This document shows positions 7,973 to 26,018 of a stretch of DNA of 64,000 nucleotides, piece by piece; within the stretch, counting starts at the first letter, position 1, and the number at the start of each line of letters is the position of its first letter. The stretch lies in sequence record PV946933.1. The stretch is one strand, 5' to 3'. The notes beneath the pieces were generated by a model that was not told the DNA's origin, made no database searches, and was given only the letters and a program-made list of their open reading frames with translations. Made by a program: the position numbers and the translations under genes. Origin of the DNA: a phage.

Positions 7973-8838
7973 TATTGAGCCACCCCGATTTTCTGCGTAG
8001 CGATAACTTTAACTGCTGCTCTCATACCGACAGTTGAAGAACTTATAGTCGCCGTTACATAATTTTCTTTAATACTAAATGCAATATTAGCGATTTCGTC
8101 TTCTTCGGTTTCATTCCCAACCCGCATGACAGCATATTCAGAAGAAATGACCGTTGAATTAACAGTATCTACAAGAATATTTATTTCTGCCGTTTTAATT
8201 TTTCTTCCATCTACCGATTGACAAGTAACTAGCAATTTAGCCATATTGTATTCAGTACGATGAAATAATGGAATGTCAACTGATCCAGATGTAGAAATAT
8301 TCCATGTACCTTCGGCAGGTGATTCCTTTTGGCCAAACATACTTTCAATAGAATAATTCCAAACTGACGTAGAATTATCAGATGAAATACAGCGCAAAGT
8401 TACTTTACTATATGGGCTAGTTACTACCAAATTACCCGAAACACCTTTAATTGAATCAATGGCTTGAATTGTTAAAGGATTAGTAACTGATATCGATCCA
8501 TTAGAATTAATGAATTCAACACAGTCGCCGAGTTCTCCTCTTTCAATGATAACTTTAACACCAACAGCAGAGGTATCAATATCATGTCTAGTGCCAACTT
8601 TTACTGGAGTTGCGTACTCTGTGATAGAATGCTTTTGATAATATCCAGTAGCATGGATAATTTGGCCGTCAGCACCAGTACCATTTGCTACTGCCATTTT
8701 ACGTTGATCGCCAAACGCGTTATAAATTGCATTAAAATCACTATTAATTTTATTACCACCGTCGAATAAGATATCACCAGTAGAAGCGTTACCAATTTCG
8801 CCGGTATCAATCAATTTCTTTGGTTCTTGAATGAACAT
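7972..8838 (-). CDS. 9: Baseplate wedge protein gp9 (long tail fibre socket)
   Basis: ORF track 288 aa, same length as T4 gp9; synteny. Confidence 0.85.
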   Translation of the reverse strand: MFIQEPKKLIDTGEIGNASTGDILFDGGNKINSDFNAIYNAFGDQRKMAVANGTGADGQIIHATGYYQKHSITEYATPVKVGTRHDIDTSAVGVKVIIERGELGDCVEFINSNGSISVTNPLTIQAIDSIKGVSGNLVVTSPYSKVTLRCISSDNSTSVWNYSIESMFGQKESPAEGTWNISTSGSVDIPLFHRTEYNMAKLLVTCQSVDGRKIKTAEINILVDTVNSTVISSEYAVMRVGNETEEDEIANIAFSIKENYVTATISSSTVGMRAAVKVIATQKIGVAQ

Positions 8839-23273: not shown

Positions 23274-23346
23274 TGGGAATTAGCCAAGTTGGTAAGGCAT
23301 AGCATTTTGACTGCTAGATGCAAAGGTTCGAGTCCTTTATTCCCAG
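23274..23346 (+). tRNA. tRNA-Gln (anticodon UUG)
   Basis: Cloverleaf readable: acceptor tgggaat/attccca, anticodon stem tagca/tgcta, loop ttTTGac, T-arm GGTTCGAGTCC; CCA not encoded. Confidence 0.8.
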
Positions 23347-23347
23347 C

Positions 23348-23434
23348 GCGAGAATGGTCAAATTGGTAAAGGCACAGCACTTAAAATGCTGCGGAATGAT
23401 TTCCTTGTGGGTTCGAGTCCCACTTCTCGCACCA
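23348..23434 (+). tRNA. tRNA-Leu (anticodon UAA)
   Basis: Acceptor gcgagaa/ttctcgc, loop ctTAAaa, long variable arm, T-arm GGTTCGAGTCC, CCA encoded. Confidence 0.8.
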
Positions 23435-23439
23435 AATTT

Positions 23440-23513
<74 letters not shown>

Positions 23514-23523
23514 ATTTAATTTA

Positions 23524-23597
23524 CTCCGTGTAGCTCAGTTTGGTAGAGCGCCTGATTTGGGATCAGGAGGTCCAAGGTTCAAATCCTTGTATGGAGA
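23524..23597 (+). tRNA. tRNA-Pro (anticodon UGG)
   Basis: Acceptor ctccgtg/tatggag (two GU pairs), anticodon stem cctga/tcagg, loop ttTGGga, T-arm GGTTCAAATCC; CCA not encoded. Confidence 0.75.
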
Positions 23598-23599
23598 CT

Positions 23600-23689
23600 G
23601 GAGGCGTGGCAGAGTGGTTTAATGCACCGGTCTTGAAAACCGGCAGTCGCTCCGGCGACTCATAGGTTCAAATCCTATCGCCTCCGCCA
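23600..23689 (+). tRNA. tRNA-Ser (anticodon UGA)
   Basis: Acceptor ggaggcg/cgcctcc, anticodon stem ccggt/accgg, loop ctTGAaa, long variable arm, CCA encoded. Confidence 0.8.
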
Positions 23690-23694
23690 GTTTT

Positions 23695-23770
23695 GCTGAT
23701 TTAGCTCAGTAGGTAGAGCAACTCACTTGTAATGAGAAGGTCGGCGGTTCGATTCCGTCAATCAGCACCA
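23695..23770 (+). tRNA. tRNA-Thr (anticodon UGU)
   Basis: Acceptor gctgatt/aatcagc, loop ctTGTaa, T-arm GGTTCGATTCC, CCA encoded. Confidence 0.8.
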
Positions 23771-23771
23771 A

Positions 23772-23846
23772 GGCCCTGTAGCTGGAAGGTTCAAGCAAGC
23801 GACTCATAATCGCCAGATGGTGGTTCAATTCCACCCAGGGCCACCA
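23772..23846 (+). tRNA. tRNA with CAU anticodon (most likely tRNA-Ile read as AUA after C34 modification, as in T4; tRNA-Met not excluded)
   Basis: Acceptor ggccctg/cagggcc, loop ctCATaa, T-arm GGTTCAATTCC, CCA encoded. Confidence 0.7.
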
Positions 23847-23859
23847 AATTAAGAATTAA

Positions 23860-23946
23860 GGGGAGTTATCCCGTAGAGGTAGCGGTGTGGACTGTAAATC
23901 CATTGTCATTGCGACTCGGGTGGTTCGACTCCATCACTCCCCACCA
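23860..23946 (+). tRNA. tRNA-Tyr (anticodon GUA), class II with long variable arm
   Basis: Acceptor ggggagt/actcccc, anticodon stem gtgga/tccat, loop ctGTAaa, variable stem-loop, T-loop ttcgact, CCA encoded. Confidence 0.7.
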
Positions 23947-23950
23947 ATTT

Positions 23951-24025
23951 GGATGTGTAGCTCAATGGCAGAGCGATCGCCTGTTAAGCGATTGGTTATA
24001 GGTTCGAATCCTATCACGTCCGCCA
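23951..24025 (+). tRNA. tRNA-Asn (anticodon GUU)
   Basis: Acceptor ggatgtg/cacgtcc, D-stem gctc/gagc, anticodon stem atcgc/gcgat, loop ctGTTaa, T-arm GGTTCGAATCC, CCA encoded. Confidence 0.75.
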
Positions 24026-24029
24026 AATC

Positions 24030-24105
24030 CGAGGCATAGCTCAGAAGGAAGAGCAAGGACCTTCTAAGTCCTGGGTCGTAGGTTCGATCCCTACTGCCTC
24101 GACCA
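24030..24105 (+). tRNA. tRNA-Arg (anticodon UCU)
   Basis: Acceptor cgaggca/tgcctcg, anticodon stem aggac/gtcct, loop ctTCTaa, T-arm GGTTCGATCC, CCA encoded. Confidence 0.8.
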
Positions 24106-24121
24106 ATTAAGTGAGGAAAAT

Positions 24122-24472
24122 ATGAAAGGTAATGTTTATTTAGTAGTTCATGATTTAACATTCTATTTTAATCACAATGACACTGTTATTTCTGAACGTG
24201 TAATTAATTTACTTTATCAGCATGCAGATTATGTTTATGTCGAAAACGAATACGGTCATTGGCAATTTCTCAAAAATCGTTCATTTGGTTTAGATGGTTA
24301 CGAATACTTTGAACGTAAAGACCTTTTAGATAAAATTCCATTATCTACACAATATCAAAATCACAAGTCTTTATATAAATGCCGTCCAATTCGAAATGCT
24401 GAATCTGCGTATGAAGTAATTGATTTATGGCGTAAACGTCGTGGACAGGTTGATGCTTTAAAAGAATACTAA
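24122..24472 (+). CDS. Hypothetical protein
   Basis: ORF track 116 aa; GAGGAAAA RBS directly after tRNA-Arg. Confidence 0.5.
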   Translation: MKGNVYLVVHDLTFYFNHNDTVISERVINLLYQHADYVYVENEYGHWQFLKNRSFGLDGYEYFERKDLLDKIPLSTQYQNHKSLYKCRPIRNAESAYEVIDLWRKRRGQVDALKEY

Positions 24473-24570
24473 GAAACCGGGTCGCTATCGGTAAGTCGTC
24501 GGACTGATGTTCCCTGGAGTATAGTTTCTCCCACAGTTTTACTGTGTTCTGATTCTTTACTATCACAGCA

Positions 24571-24727
24571 GAAACGGCGCATCAAATTATCGATTCGAGG
24601 AAATATCTTTGCCGTAAGCCGAGTAGCGTTTTTGACGGAACGTTCGGATATGGTCGAGATATGGCCTTTTAAAAATATTAAGTAGCGTCAACTGCTTAAT
24701 AACCGGGTTCGAATCCCGGCGTTTCGT
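24571..24727 (+). ncRNA. Candidate stable structured RNA with tRNA-like 3' domain (possible analogue of T4 stable RNAs C/D); boundaries approximate
   Basis: About 380 nt without a credible ORF; T-arm-like CCGGGTTCGAATCCCGG followed by CGTTTCG able to pair with GAAACG about 150 nt upstream; several local hairpins; strong terminator follows. Confidence 0.25.
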
Positions 24728-24779
24728 ACAAACACTTGCCTTAGCAGGTGGAACCCCGACAAGGTTGCCGCAAGGCTTA

Positions 24780-24806
24780 GCCCCGACCGAAAGGTTGGGG
24801 CTTTTT
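24780..24806 (+). terminator. Rho-independent terminator (GCCCCGACC-GAAA-GGTTGGGGC + T5)
   Basis: GC-rich stem, GAAA loop and U-run; near-identical copy at 25338-25364. Confidence 0.6.
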
Positions 24807-24808
24807 AG

Positions 24809-24816
24809 TATAAATA
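24809..24816 (+). promoter_or_regulatory. Candidate late promoter TATAAATA upstream of internal-protein gene
   Basis: Exact TATAAATA about 40 nt upstream of ATG 24856. Confidence 0.4.
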
Positions 24817-24855
24817 TAGTAGTGTATTAAATCACGAATTAAAACAGGAAATAAG

Positions 24856-25329
24856 ATGAAATCATATGCTCAATTTTTAAATGAAGTGGTGTTAAATGAA
24901 GCATCCGCTTCAGATGTTCGCGCTGTAGCAACTGCTGCTATTAAAGCTGGTAAATATTCTTATAAAGATGCTTCTGACGAATCCCGGTACAAGTTCTACG
25001 ACGATATGAGAGCTGAAGGCTTTGTGGGTAACTATGTTACCACCGCCTGGAAAAGTCTGGTTGCTACTGGTGCGGCTTTCGAAAAACCTTCCGGTAAACC
25101 TGCTCCTAAAGCAGATCCTAAAGCTGCACAAGAAAAAAATATTGTTAAAGGAATTATCGCTAAATATGAAGCTATCCTTAAAGAGCTTTTAGTAATTAAA
25201 ACCGAAGGCCAAAAATTAGCCCGTGCCTATAGTTTCAAAGATAATCCACATGCTCATGACCTAGAGTATGTTGAAGATCTCCAAAAAATCATCAAAGACC
25301 GCATTTGGTCTGCTAAACAAATCAAATAA
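24856..25329 (+). CDS. Internal-protein-like protein with capsid-targeting leader
   Basis: ORF track 157 aa; N-terminus MKSYAQFLNE fits CTS pattern; flanked by repeated terminator hairpins. Confidence 0.65.
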   Translation: MKSYAQFLNEVVLNEASASDVRAVATAAIKAGKYSYKDASDESRYKFYDDMRAEGFVGNYVTTAWKSLVATGAAFEKPSGKPAPKADPKAAQEKNIVKGIIAKYEAILKELLVIKTEGQKLARAYSFKDNPHAHDLEYVEDLQKIIKDRIWSAKQIK

Positions 25330-25337
25330 CATTCTTA

Positions 25338-25364
25338 GCCTCGACCGAAAGGTTGGGGCTTTTT
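25338..25364 (+). terminator. Rho-independent terminator (GCCTCGACC-GAAA-GGTTGGGGC + T5)
   Basis: Near-identical repeat of the hairpin at 24780-24806. Confidence 0.6.
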
Positions 25365-25454
25365 AGTTTGAATCGCATAGAGAATGCTGTTACGGATAAT
25401 AACAAAGTAATAAATAATTAATAACTGACCGATAAATTATTTCAAGGATTTTAA

Positions 25455-26018
25455 ATGAAAACCTATGCCGAATTTTTAACCGAAGCAGCAAAATTACCAT
25501 CTGAAGCAGAACTTACTAAAGTATTCTTCCAATTGGACCCAAAAGACCGTGGCGATTTTCTTAAGTGGAAAGCTAAAGCTATTGAAATGTATAACATCGA
25601 TAATAGTTCTTTTACGATGAGTCAAGAAAATAAATTCAATAAAGCATTTTTCAAAATTTCTAAGAAATTAGCATCTGGCGCTCAGGTTCCTAAATCTGCA
25701 TTAGCTACTCCTGAACGTGCACCTGTTAAAATTTCTAAGAATATGTTCGACACTAAAAAATACGTTAATGCTTTGAATAAAGCTCTTGATGCATTGGATG
25801 ATGCAAAGAAGGCAGCCCGTGATCTTCAAGACGTGTACACCGATTTTGATCGTAAAACTAAAGGTTCTATTTCAAATAGCGAACGCAATAGTGTAAGTGT
25901 TTATTCTGATAGCCTTGATGTTCTTGGCGATGCGTATACTGAAATTAAAAATCGTATTAACACCGCATCTAAGCTAAAAGCTGCCGTAGAAGCTATAATA
26001 ACTAAACTAGGTAAATAA
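25455..26018 (+). CDS. Internal-protein-like protein with capsid-targeting leader
   Basis: ORF track 187 aa; N-terminus MKTYAEFLTE fits CTS pattern. Confidence 0.65.
   Translation: MKTYAEFLTEAAKLPSEAELTKVFFQLDPKDRGDFLKWKAKAIEMYNIDNSSFTMSQENKFNKAFFKISKKLASGAQVPKSALATPERAPVKISKNMFDTKKYVNALNKALDALDDAKKAARDLQDVYTDFDRKTKGSISNSERNSVSVYSDSLDVLGDAYTEIKNRINTASKLKAAVEAIITKLGK

Follow-up and report, generated by a model that had tools for sequence, protein, structure and literature searches.

Probable orthologues of the T4 stable RNAs rnaD and rnaC at the distal end of a T2-type phage tRNA cluster, and their conserved folds

Introduction

At the end of its tRNA cluster, bacteriophage T4 encodes two stable RNAs, species 1 (rnaC) and species 2 (rnaD), which have been known since the 1970s. 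Their annotated order in T4 is tRNA-Arg, rnaD (119 nt), a 6-nt spacer and rnaC (139 nt); the feature is also annotated in T2L and in RB phages. T4 RNAC and RNAD behave as late RNAs and are detectable by Northern blot (PMC9697503). The T2L cluster contains two extra open reading frames (ORFs) and extra tRNAs, and its primary transcript ends after the species I gene (PMC2330249). In rnaD, a convergent single-nucleotide polymorphism is reported to have arisen in the course of adaptation to the host ECOR34 (PMC12685909), which suggests that selection depends on the host, and papers from 2010 to 2025 still list the function of both RNAs as unknown (PMC3014915, PMC9697503, PMC12685909). Here we analyze a 64,000-nt stretch of phage DNA (sequence record PV946933.1; the window, to which all coordinates refer unless stated otherwise), in which positions 24469-24807 most probably form the distal end of the tRNA transcription unit, with orthologues of rnaD and rnaC followed by an intrinsic terminator.

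A preliminary description, made from the letters of the window alone, had seen in 24473-24855 a candidate stable RNA. This interpretation is supported and was essentially right. The region does hold structured non-coding RNA, although it is not a single molecule of 380 nt but a pair of RNAs with a trailer and a terminator behind them, and it starts slightly earlier than noted, as the stop codon of the preceding ORF overlaps the start of rnaD at 24469. Likewise, the suggested analogy to the two T4 stable RNAs named the correct kind of molecule, but the relation is orthology and both RNAs are present. The stable transcript that this interpretation calls for was detected for the T4 orthologues by Northern blot (PMC9697503) and would be expected in this phage by homology.

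Results

Identification of the two RNAs

The window is from a T2-type Tequatrovirus. A 431-nt query around the region matched 812 phage records in BLAST, almost all of them T4-like phages of Escherichia, Shigella, Yersinia and Salmonella, with Salmonella phage GRNsp7 (99.1%) as top match. ARAGORN and Rfam found ten tRNA genes at 23274-24105 and made no call on 24469-24855, because neither RNA has an Rfam family; the Rfam scan suggested in the preliminary description accordingly gave no family match in 24473-24855. A permissive Rfam search of 24100-25450 produced sub-threshold noise only, the strongest match being tRNA-Sec-like (17.3 bits, threshold 47) at 24635-24727 and driven by a T arm. The two RNAs were instead located by comparison with annotated phages:

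24469..24584, + strand: rnaD (species 2 RNA) orthologue of T2 type, 116 nt, from T4 and RB5 alignment, mapping of the T2L record AJ880101 and covariance model R2
24590..24730, + strand: rnaC (species 1 RNA) orthologue, from the T4 annotation (24590-24728) and the T2L annotation (24591-24730)

In RB5, rnaD (species II RNA) and then rnaC are annotated under the matching DNA. Pairwise alignment placed T4 rnaC on 24590-24728 with 136/139 identities (three substitutions), and RB18 and other records contain an rnaC that is 100% identical to the window copy. T4 rnaD aligned to approximately 24469-24583; its ends are kept (5' 48 nt and 3' 25 nt shared with T4 species 2 RNA), and its center is divergent. 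The T2L tRNA-cluster record AJ880101 matches the layout of the window base for base, with the trna.2 ORF, rnaD (116 nt) and rnaC (140 nt) mapping to 24122-24472, 24469-24584 and 24591-24730, respectively; a 6-nt spacer separates the two RNAs in the window. In this record, rnaD overlaps the last 4 nt of trna.2, and its annotation is itself based on 5'- and 3'-end homology with T4 species II RNA. Covariance models, whose training sets both included the window sequence, scored 159.7 bits at the window rnaC (R1; the sole match within the 64 kb) and 119.5 bits at 24470-24585 for rnaD (R2). The match to the T4 stable RNAs is far beyond chance.

The locus thus shares with T4 and T2L orthologous sequences, their order, the terminator and the place at the end of the cluster, where rnaC lies at the 3' end of the tRNA genes, after rnaD and before the terminator. 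For rnaC, nothing of substance differs from T4. By contrast, the center of rnaD is of T2 type here, and rnaD does not directly follow tRNA-Arg. The two are separated by a 116-aa ORF at 24122-24472 (+ strand), the stop codon of which overlaps the rnaD start. This ORF matches PHROG 3355, is named trna.2 in T2L and is present in T2L and Mosigvirus, whereas T4 and RB5 lack it. It is a layout variant and no reason to exclude the identity of rnaD.

Small protein-coding genes could in principle hide in the region, as ORFs of 21-38 aa occur on both strands and hypothetical proteins are entered at the site of the rnaC match in several GenBank records. However, most records annotate nothing over rnaC, substitutions appear as paired stem changes and not at third codon positions, and one-base indels between close relatives fall inside both rnaC and rnaD. 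We hence give this reading practically no credence, and the indels also argue against a conserved small protein, which the preliminary description had considered as a counter-indication. Its statement that there is no credible ORF holds, since none longer than 38 aa lies within 24473-24855 on either strand. The hypothetical protein coding sequences placed over rnaC (e.g., in PV648363 of T2, MZ234037 and ON528737) are probably automated mis-annotations of a non-coding RNA gene.

Structure of rnaC

For rnaC, 19 distinct sequences were available from Tequatrovirus, Moonvirus, Karamvirus, Gelderlandvirus, Kanagawavirus, Winklervirus, Mosigvirus and viral contigs. RNAalifold on 17 of these returned 41 pairs, 23 of them with compensatory changes. 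Pairing was further counted, including the loop-loop helix described below, against a control in which pairing partners were slid along the alignment. In the 17 sequences, 98.3% of cells were paired (36-48% when slid) and 23 pairs had changed on both sides (3-5 when slid); for all 19, the respective values were 97.0% versus 37-49% and 27 versus 3-7. The window rnaC has a minimum free energy of -50.1 kcal/mol (z = -4.1), and its single-sequence fold equals the consensus structure. rnaC thus folds into four helices at a junction that are kept by compensatory substitutions:

24591..24597 (CGAUUCG) with 24720..24726 (CGUUUCG), + strand: acceptor-like stem, from covariation
24598..24667, + strand: long arm of about 20 bp with internal loops, at the position of the tRNA D arm (helices 2-5)
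24676..24701, + strand: 10-bp arm with the 6-nt loop CGUCAA (24686-24691), 8/10 stem pairs covarying
24703..24719, + strand: T arm, CCGGG-UUCGAAU-CCCGG, from sequence and covariation

The T-arm-like CCGGGTTCGAATCCCGG of the preliminary description was found at 24703-24719, followed by CGTTTCG at 24720-24726. Its proposed pairing of CGTTTCG with a GAAACG about 150 nt upstream did not stand. GAAACG exists (24571-24576) but belongs to the 3' end of rnaD, where the overlapping CGGCGC stretch at 24575-24580 pairs with G[U]CGUCG at 24495-24501, and we rejected the pairing because the covarying partner of CGUUUCG is CGAUUCG at 24591-24597. The 7-bp acceptor-like stem consists of five Watson-Crick pairs around two U.U mismatches; pair 24593/24724 is A-U in 6 sequences and G-C in 13, and the other four are invariant. 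In the T stem, the middle pair covaries between G-C, U-A and A-U. In the long arm, 16/20 pairs of helices 2-5 have changed on both sides, and an A-rich linker separates this arm from the 10-bp arm. An alternative acceptor pairing, ACGGAACG/CGUUUCGU, which came from the tRNA-Sec alignment, was discarded: it gives an A.C mismatch in Karamvirus and Moonvirus, and Gelderlandvirus, Kanagawavirus and KaAlpha types lack its 5' strand.

The acceptor 3' strand adjoins the T stem without a gap, and therefore the 12-bp acceptor/T stack of tRNA is reproduced. In our model, rnaC is a tRNA mimic in which this stack is kept, a 70-nt arm replaces the D arm and the 10-bp arm replaces the anticodon arm. Like canonical tRNA (RF00005, CL00001), rnaC has an acceptor-like stem of 7 bp that passes without a break into the 5-bp T stem, which carries the loop UUCGAAU of the GTTCRANYC type, and it is placed inside tRNA arrays, where the same processing enzymes likely act on it. 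In contrast, it lacks a D arm and an anticodon loop, carries the two U.U mismatches and measures 139 nt, so that with its 70-nt arm and its 10-bp arm with a 6-nt loop it does not form a cloverleaf.

Could rnaC nevertheless be a true, if atypical, decoding tRNA that carries, for example, an intron or large insertions? The acceptor-like stem, the canonical T arm, the position inside tRNA arrays and the weak tRNA-Sec-like match of 17 bits would be in agreement with this. Yet ARAGORN and the Rfam tRNA model make no call, the D arm has given way to 70 nt, ACA is encoded at the 3' end, and there is no 7-nt anticodon loop, the sole candidate being 6 nt long, invariant and complementary to another loop. 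We regard a decoding tRNA as extremely unlikely. As a working analogy, rnaC may be compared to the tRNA-like domain of tmRNA, to the bacterial Y RNA YrlA and to plant-virus tRNA-like structures, which likewise present an acceptor/T-arm mimic on a non-tRNA body and are recognized by tRNA enzymes. rnaC differs from tmRNA in that its position 3:70 is A-U or G-C instead of G3.U70 and in that it has no tag ORF; compared with YrlA, it lacks the Ro-binding helix. The region has no Rfam match to tmRNA, YrlA or tRNA-like structure families. For tmRNA, ARAGORN made no call, and no Rfam match was found at E <= 10 in 24100-25450.

After the discriminator U, the 3' flank reads ACA-A in nearly all rnaC copies and CCA-A in two homologues, L161 and L162. 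These are divergent rnaC copies (L161 1728-1868 and L162 12189-12328, both - strand) that encode UCCA after the acceptor stem. In Kosakonia phage Kc304 (Winklervirus; L143, ~334-472), the T stem is intact and the loop UGCAUUC replaces UUCGAAU.

A candidate loop-loop contact in rnaC

In the long arm, the apical loop reads UUGACG (24632-24637), and all six of its letters are complementary to the 10-bp-arm loop CGUCAA (24686-24691). Both loops are invariant in 17 sequences despite varying flanking stems. L161 and L162, which match the rnaC covariance model with 92-98 bits, have UUGGCG and CGCCAA instead, corresponding to one A-U to G-C double change, and all six pairs are thus possible in 19/19 rnaC sequences. 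By our own arithmetic, two 6-nt loops are perfectly complementary by chance in roughly 1 in 4,000 cases per loop pair. We hence propose a kissing-loop pairing, for which the compensatory support is suggestive and not strong because the A-U/G-C swap is a single evolutionary event. If the kissing loop is true, the sole anticodon-like loop would be sequestered and rnaC would be unable to decode.

Structure of rnaD

On thermodynamic grounds alone, the window rnaD is undistinctive (z = -0.94 versus shuffled sequence). Its secondary structure is nonetheless maintained by compensatory substitutions. RNAalifold gave a 5' hairpin, a long-range helix, a second helix across an internal loop and a variable tip:

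24476..24492, + strand: first hairpin, ACCGG / UCGGU with loop GUCGCUA, from covariation
24495..24501 (G[U]CGUCG, bulged U at 24496) with 24575..24580 (CGGCGC), + strand: long-range helix, from RNAalifold
24509..24511 (GUU) with 24567..24569 (AGC), + strand: second helix, from covariation
24532..24546, + strand: T2-type central hairpin, CACAG-UUUUA-CUGUG, from folding and a hairpin scan

In 17 rnaD sequences, 93% of cells were paired versus 30-53% when slid, and in 32 distinct sequences aligned to the model, 92.6% versus 30-49%, with 11-14 pairs showing double changes. Among the 32, the first helix is 96% paired, and its stem covaries between ACCGG/CCGGU, ACAGG/CCUGU and AUAGG/CCUAU. The long-range helix is 100% paired, with G-C as last pair in 21 and C-G in 11. 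A conserved internal loop, GACUGAU / AGAAA, separates it from the second helix, which occurs as GUU/AGC, GCC/GGC, GGU/ACC, GCU/AGC and AAU/AUU. The conserved secondary structure that the preliminary description looked for in homologues is thus found as compensatory changes in both RNAs. The T2-type central hairpin is common to members of Phapecoctavirus and Certrevirus but not to T4-type rnaD. A hammerhead-like reading of CUGAUG...GAAA was dismissed on inspection, as the motifs lie on opposite sides of a two-way internal loop that one helix closes, instead of at a three-way junction, and the counterpart of A9 is not conserved. A K-turn reading of internal loops was likewise dropped, since no canonical tandem G.A arrangement was seen.

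The long-range helix with its single bulged U beside AAG and an A-rich joining strand resembles the P4 core of RNase P RNA. A bulged-U helix after AAG and a CAGAAA before the 3' strand recall CR-I/CR-V of E. coli M1 RNA, and together with the tRNA-cluster context this might suggest that rnaD is related to the RNase P RNA core, or mimics it, in miniature form, with likeness in P3, J3/4, P4 and J2/4. The similarity is, however, not above chance: Smith-Waterman alignments of conserved rnaD segments to E. coli rnpB were no better than with shuffled sequences (p = 0.27-0.95), and only 1/8 best alignments falls on the P4 strands. Moreover, there is no match to the RNase P families RF00010 and RF00011 even at E <= 10. 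All other RNase P domains are missing, among them the specificity domain, P15 and P18, from an RNA of only 116 nt, and T4 tRNA maturation depends on host RNase P. We consider this relationship very improbable.

Distribution of rnaC and rnaD among phages

In approximately 680 records, rnaC is more than 95% conserved. Outside Tequatrovirus and Mosigvirus, it lies inside tRNA arrays, usually between the Trp and Gly genes, with spacers of 5-6 nt like those of a tRNA: Karamvirus and Gelderlandvirus have it flanked by tRNA-Trp and tRNA-Gly, and in Moonvirus its neighbors are likewise tRNA genes. When metagenomes were scanned with a loose pattern, TTCGAGGA...GGTTCGARTCC, nearly all matches were due to chance; when the rnaC model was applied to these loci, one true copy (L115) was found in the first 100 and none in the other 20, and two weak model matches were tRNA-Ser genes.

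BLAST and pattern scans detected rnaD in Dhakavirus and Gaprivervirus; in Phapecoctavirus, Certrevirus and Mosugukvirus, they detected rnaD-like RNAs within tRNA clusters. The covariance model added copies that match less well and lie apart from rnaC, in Moonvirus, Karamvirus and Kanagawavirus. Several copies are from 142-155 kb phages unrelated to T4:

L148, 499-615: rnaD-like RNA
L155, 302-417: rnaD-like RNA
L152, 229-392: rnaD-like RNA
L153, 230-392: rnaD-like RNA
L170, 10639-10806: rnaD-like RNA
L158, 2779-2926: rnaD-like RNA
L164, 1933-2106: rnaD-like RNA

Three unrelated phage groups thus retain rnaD-like RNAs, and an Rfam search found no family covering those of Phapecoctavirus, Certrevirus and relatives. 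Some relatives have an insertion of 50-70 nt in the first hairpin, and several of these insertions (in Phapecoctavirus, Certrevirus and relatives) contain the D-loop-like CCAAGCUGGUAA and AGCCCAGAUGG. In representative genomes of 185,579 bacterial and archaeal species, the rnaD core motif was absent save for two chance matches, both inside high-GC coding DNA with no tRNAs nearby.

Some phages have rnaC but no rnaD and others rnaD but no rnaC, which indicates that the two RNAs are independent modules. For the same reason, a pairing between the rnaD loop and rnaC (CGCUA/UAGCG) was ruled out. Dhakavirus dhaeg (L147) and Gaprivervirus VR20 (L146) have kept rnaD and lack rnaC; in dhaeg, trailer and terminator directly follow rnaD, which would fit either a precise excision of rnaC or its never having been inserted. 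The hairpin CCCACAG...CUGUGUUCU, which in the window is part of rnaD (24529-24551), recurs separately in L161 and L154, a few hundred nucleotides downstream of an rnaD-like RNA and just before a tRNA, and may be an independent module as well:

L161, ~8700-8760 of the reverse strand (~1980-2040 of the + strand): separate T2-type hairpin
L154, ~590-660: separate T2-type hairpin

The location in a tRNA operon also allows for a null explanation, in which rnaC and rnaD are functionless leftovers of tRNA-precursor processing that are passively released as neighboring tRNAs are processed and accumulate only since they are structured. Fifty years without a reported function and the viability of T4 tRNA-region deletions are compatible with that. 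However, many helices of both RNAs are maintained by compensatory changes, and the unpaired UUGACG/CGUCAA, GAGGA, GGCCUU and AAGUCGUC are invariant across genera. The high conservation of rnaC in the ~680 records and the retention of rnaD-like RNAs in three unrelated phage groups further speak against leftovers, which we therefore judge improbable.

Flanking elements

The unit ends in a trailer and a terminator, followed by a promoter-like site:

24733..24776, + strand: trailer of three small hairpins between rnaC and the terminator, from folding
24779..24807, + strand: intrinsic terminator of the tRNA/stable-RNA unit, from a terminator scan
24809..24816, + strand: TATAAATA, a match to the T4 late-promoter consensus ahead of the ORF at 24856-25329, from sequence reading

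The several local hairpins and the strong terminator at the end that had been described for the region are both present. The fold of 24729-24812 has -36.5 kcal/mol (z = -3.9). The trailer is 100% conserved with RB5 and directly follows rnaD in Dhakavirus. As expected of a Rho-independent terminator, the hairpin at 24779-24802 has 10 bp, seven of them G-C, a GAAA loop and a subsequent TTTTT, with the T run extending to 24806; the scan gave 6 terminator-like sites versus 1.9 expected from shuffles. In phage fPS-65, a terminator is annotated at the same place and a predicted late promoter at the homologous site of TATAAATA. On the basis of the established T4 consensus, TATAAATA is a putative late promoter; it is not part of rnaC or rnaD. 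A scan between the tRNAs and rnaD found no convincing promoter, the sole sigma-70-like site there being one that would initiate inside rnaD. A T4 middle promoter (MotA box) before rnaD was excluded by inspection, as TGCTT at 24454-24458 is too near any -10 element.

Downstream, the tandem ORFs 24856-25329 and 25455-26018 (+ strand) both match PHROG 2280 and are barely alike past their first 10 residues. The first of them is followed by a hairpin at 25337-25360 that is nearly identical to the rnaC terminator at 24779-24802 (AGCCTCGACCGAAAGGTTGGGGCT vs AGCCCCGACCGAAAGGTTGGGGCT), which suggests a duplicated gene-plus-terminator cassette. Within the tRNA cluster, the tRNA at 23772-23846 (+ strand), with anticodon CAT, is a Met tRNA according to ARAGORN. 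Its place, directly behind tRNA-Thr, is that of the annotated tRNA-Ile in T4, and it is therefore probably an isoleucine tRNA with a modified C34.

Discussion

From its homology and from tRNA biology, a model for the biogenesis of the two RNAs can be drawn. Transcription of rnaD and rnaC would come from the tRNA cluster, by read-through across the 116-aa ORF. RNase P might then cut 5' of C24591, because rnaC carries an acceptor/T-arm mimic, and 3' exonucleases would trim rnaC to the stem, with CCA addition as a possible further step. In this way, rnaD could be freed as the upstream structured piece, shielded by its long-range helix. We have high confidence in the identification of the locus together with this biogenesis model, an assessment that excludes any guess at function.

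Several observations nevertheless weigh against parts of this picture. The ends of rnaD and rnaC in this phage are predicted by homology, and the window rnaD fold is no more stable than shuffled sequence. In rnaC, the acceptor stem contains the two U.U mismatches, and UACA instead of UCCA is encoded in all but two homologues, which leaves a tRNA-like CCA end putative. The T loop of Kc304 is degenerate; the canonical T loop is therefore not strictly needed in every lineage, and T-loop recognition may be dispensable. Finally, the decoy function considered next is proposed from the architecture of rnaC.

As a tentative functional proposal, rnaC could serve, without decoding, as a tRNA decoy or sponge that occupies a tRNA-binding factor of the host or the phage, and rnaD as a protein-binding RNA, each acting independently. 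The decoy idea follows from the would-be anticodon loop being sequestered, so that only the acceptor end and the T loop would be on offer. Independent action would be in line with each RNA occurring without the other, and protein binding by rnaD would use its conserved internal loop. In a more elaborate version, which we advance with slightly greater reserve, rnaC might form a closed ring, in which the kissing loop locks the anticodon-arm substitute to the expanded D-arm substitute while acceptor end and T loop stay exposed. Such a ring could act as a decoy, for example for a tRNA-targeting defence nuclease of the host or for a processing or modifying enzyme. Independently of this, rnaD would be the minimal member of a phage-restricted class of structured RNAs that spans the tRNA clusters of Tevenvirinae, Phapecoctavirus and Certrevirus and has a specific role in trans.

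The presence of rnaC and rnaD in one more T2-like genome is routine. What our analysis adds are covariation-backed folds for both RNAs, a corrected acceptor pairing and a candidate kissing loop for rnaC, and a wider rnaD family. It further points to the independence of rnaC and rnaD and to the reach of rnaD-like RNAs, which takes in large enterobacterial phages of unrelated groups and stops short of bacterial genomes. Rfam families would be justified on this basis and would end the calling of hypothetical proteins over rnaC and rnaD by annotation pipelines, and the folds supply concrete mutations and pull-down baits toward the function of both RNAs.

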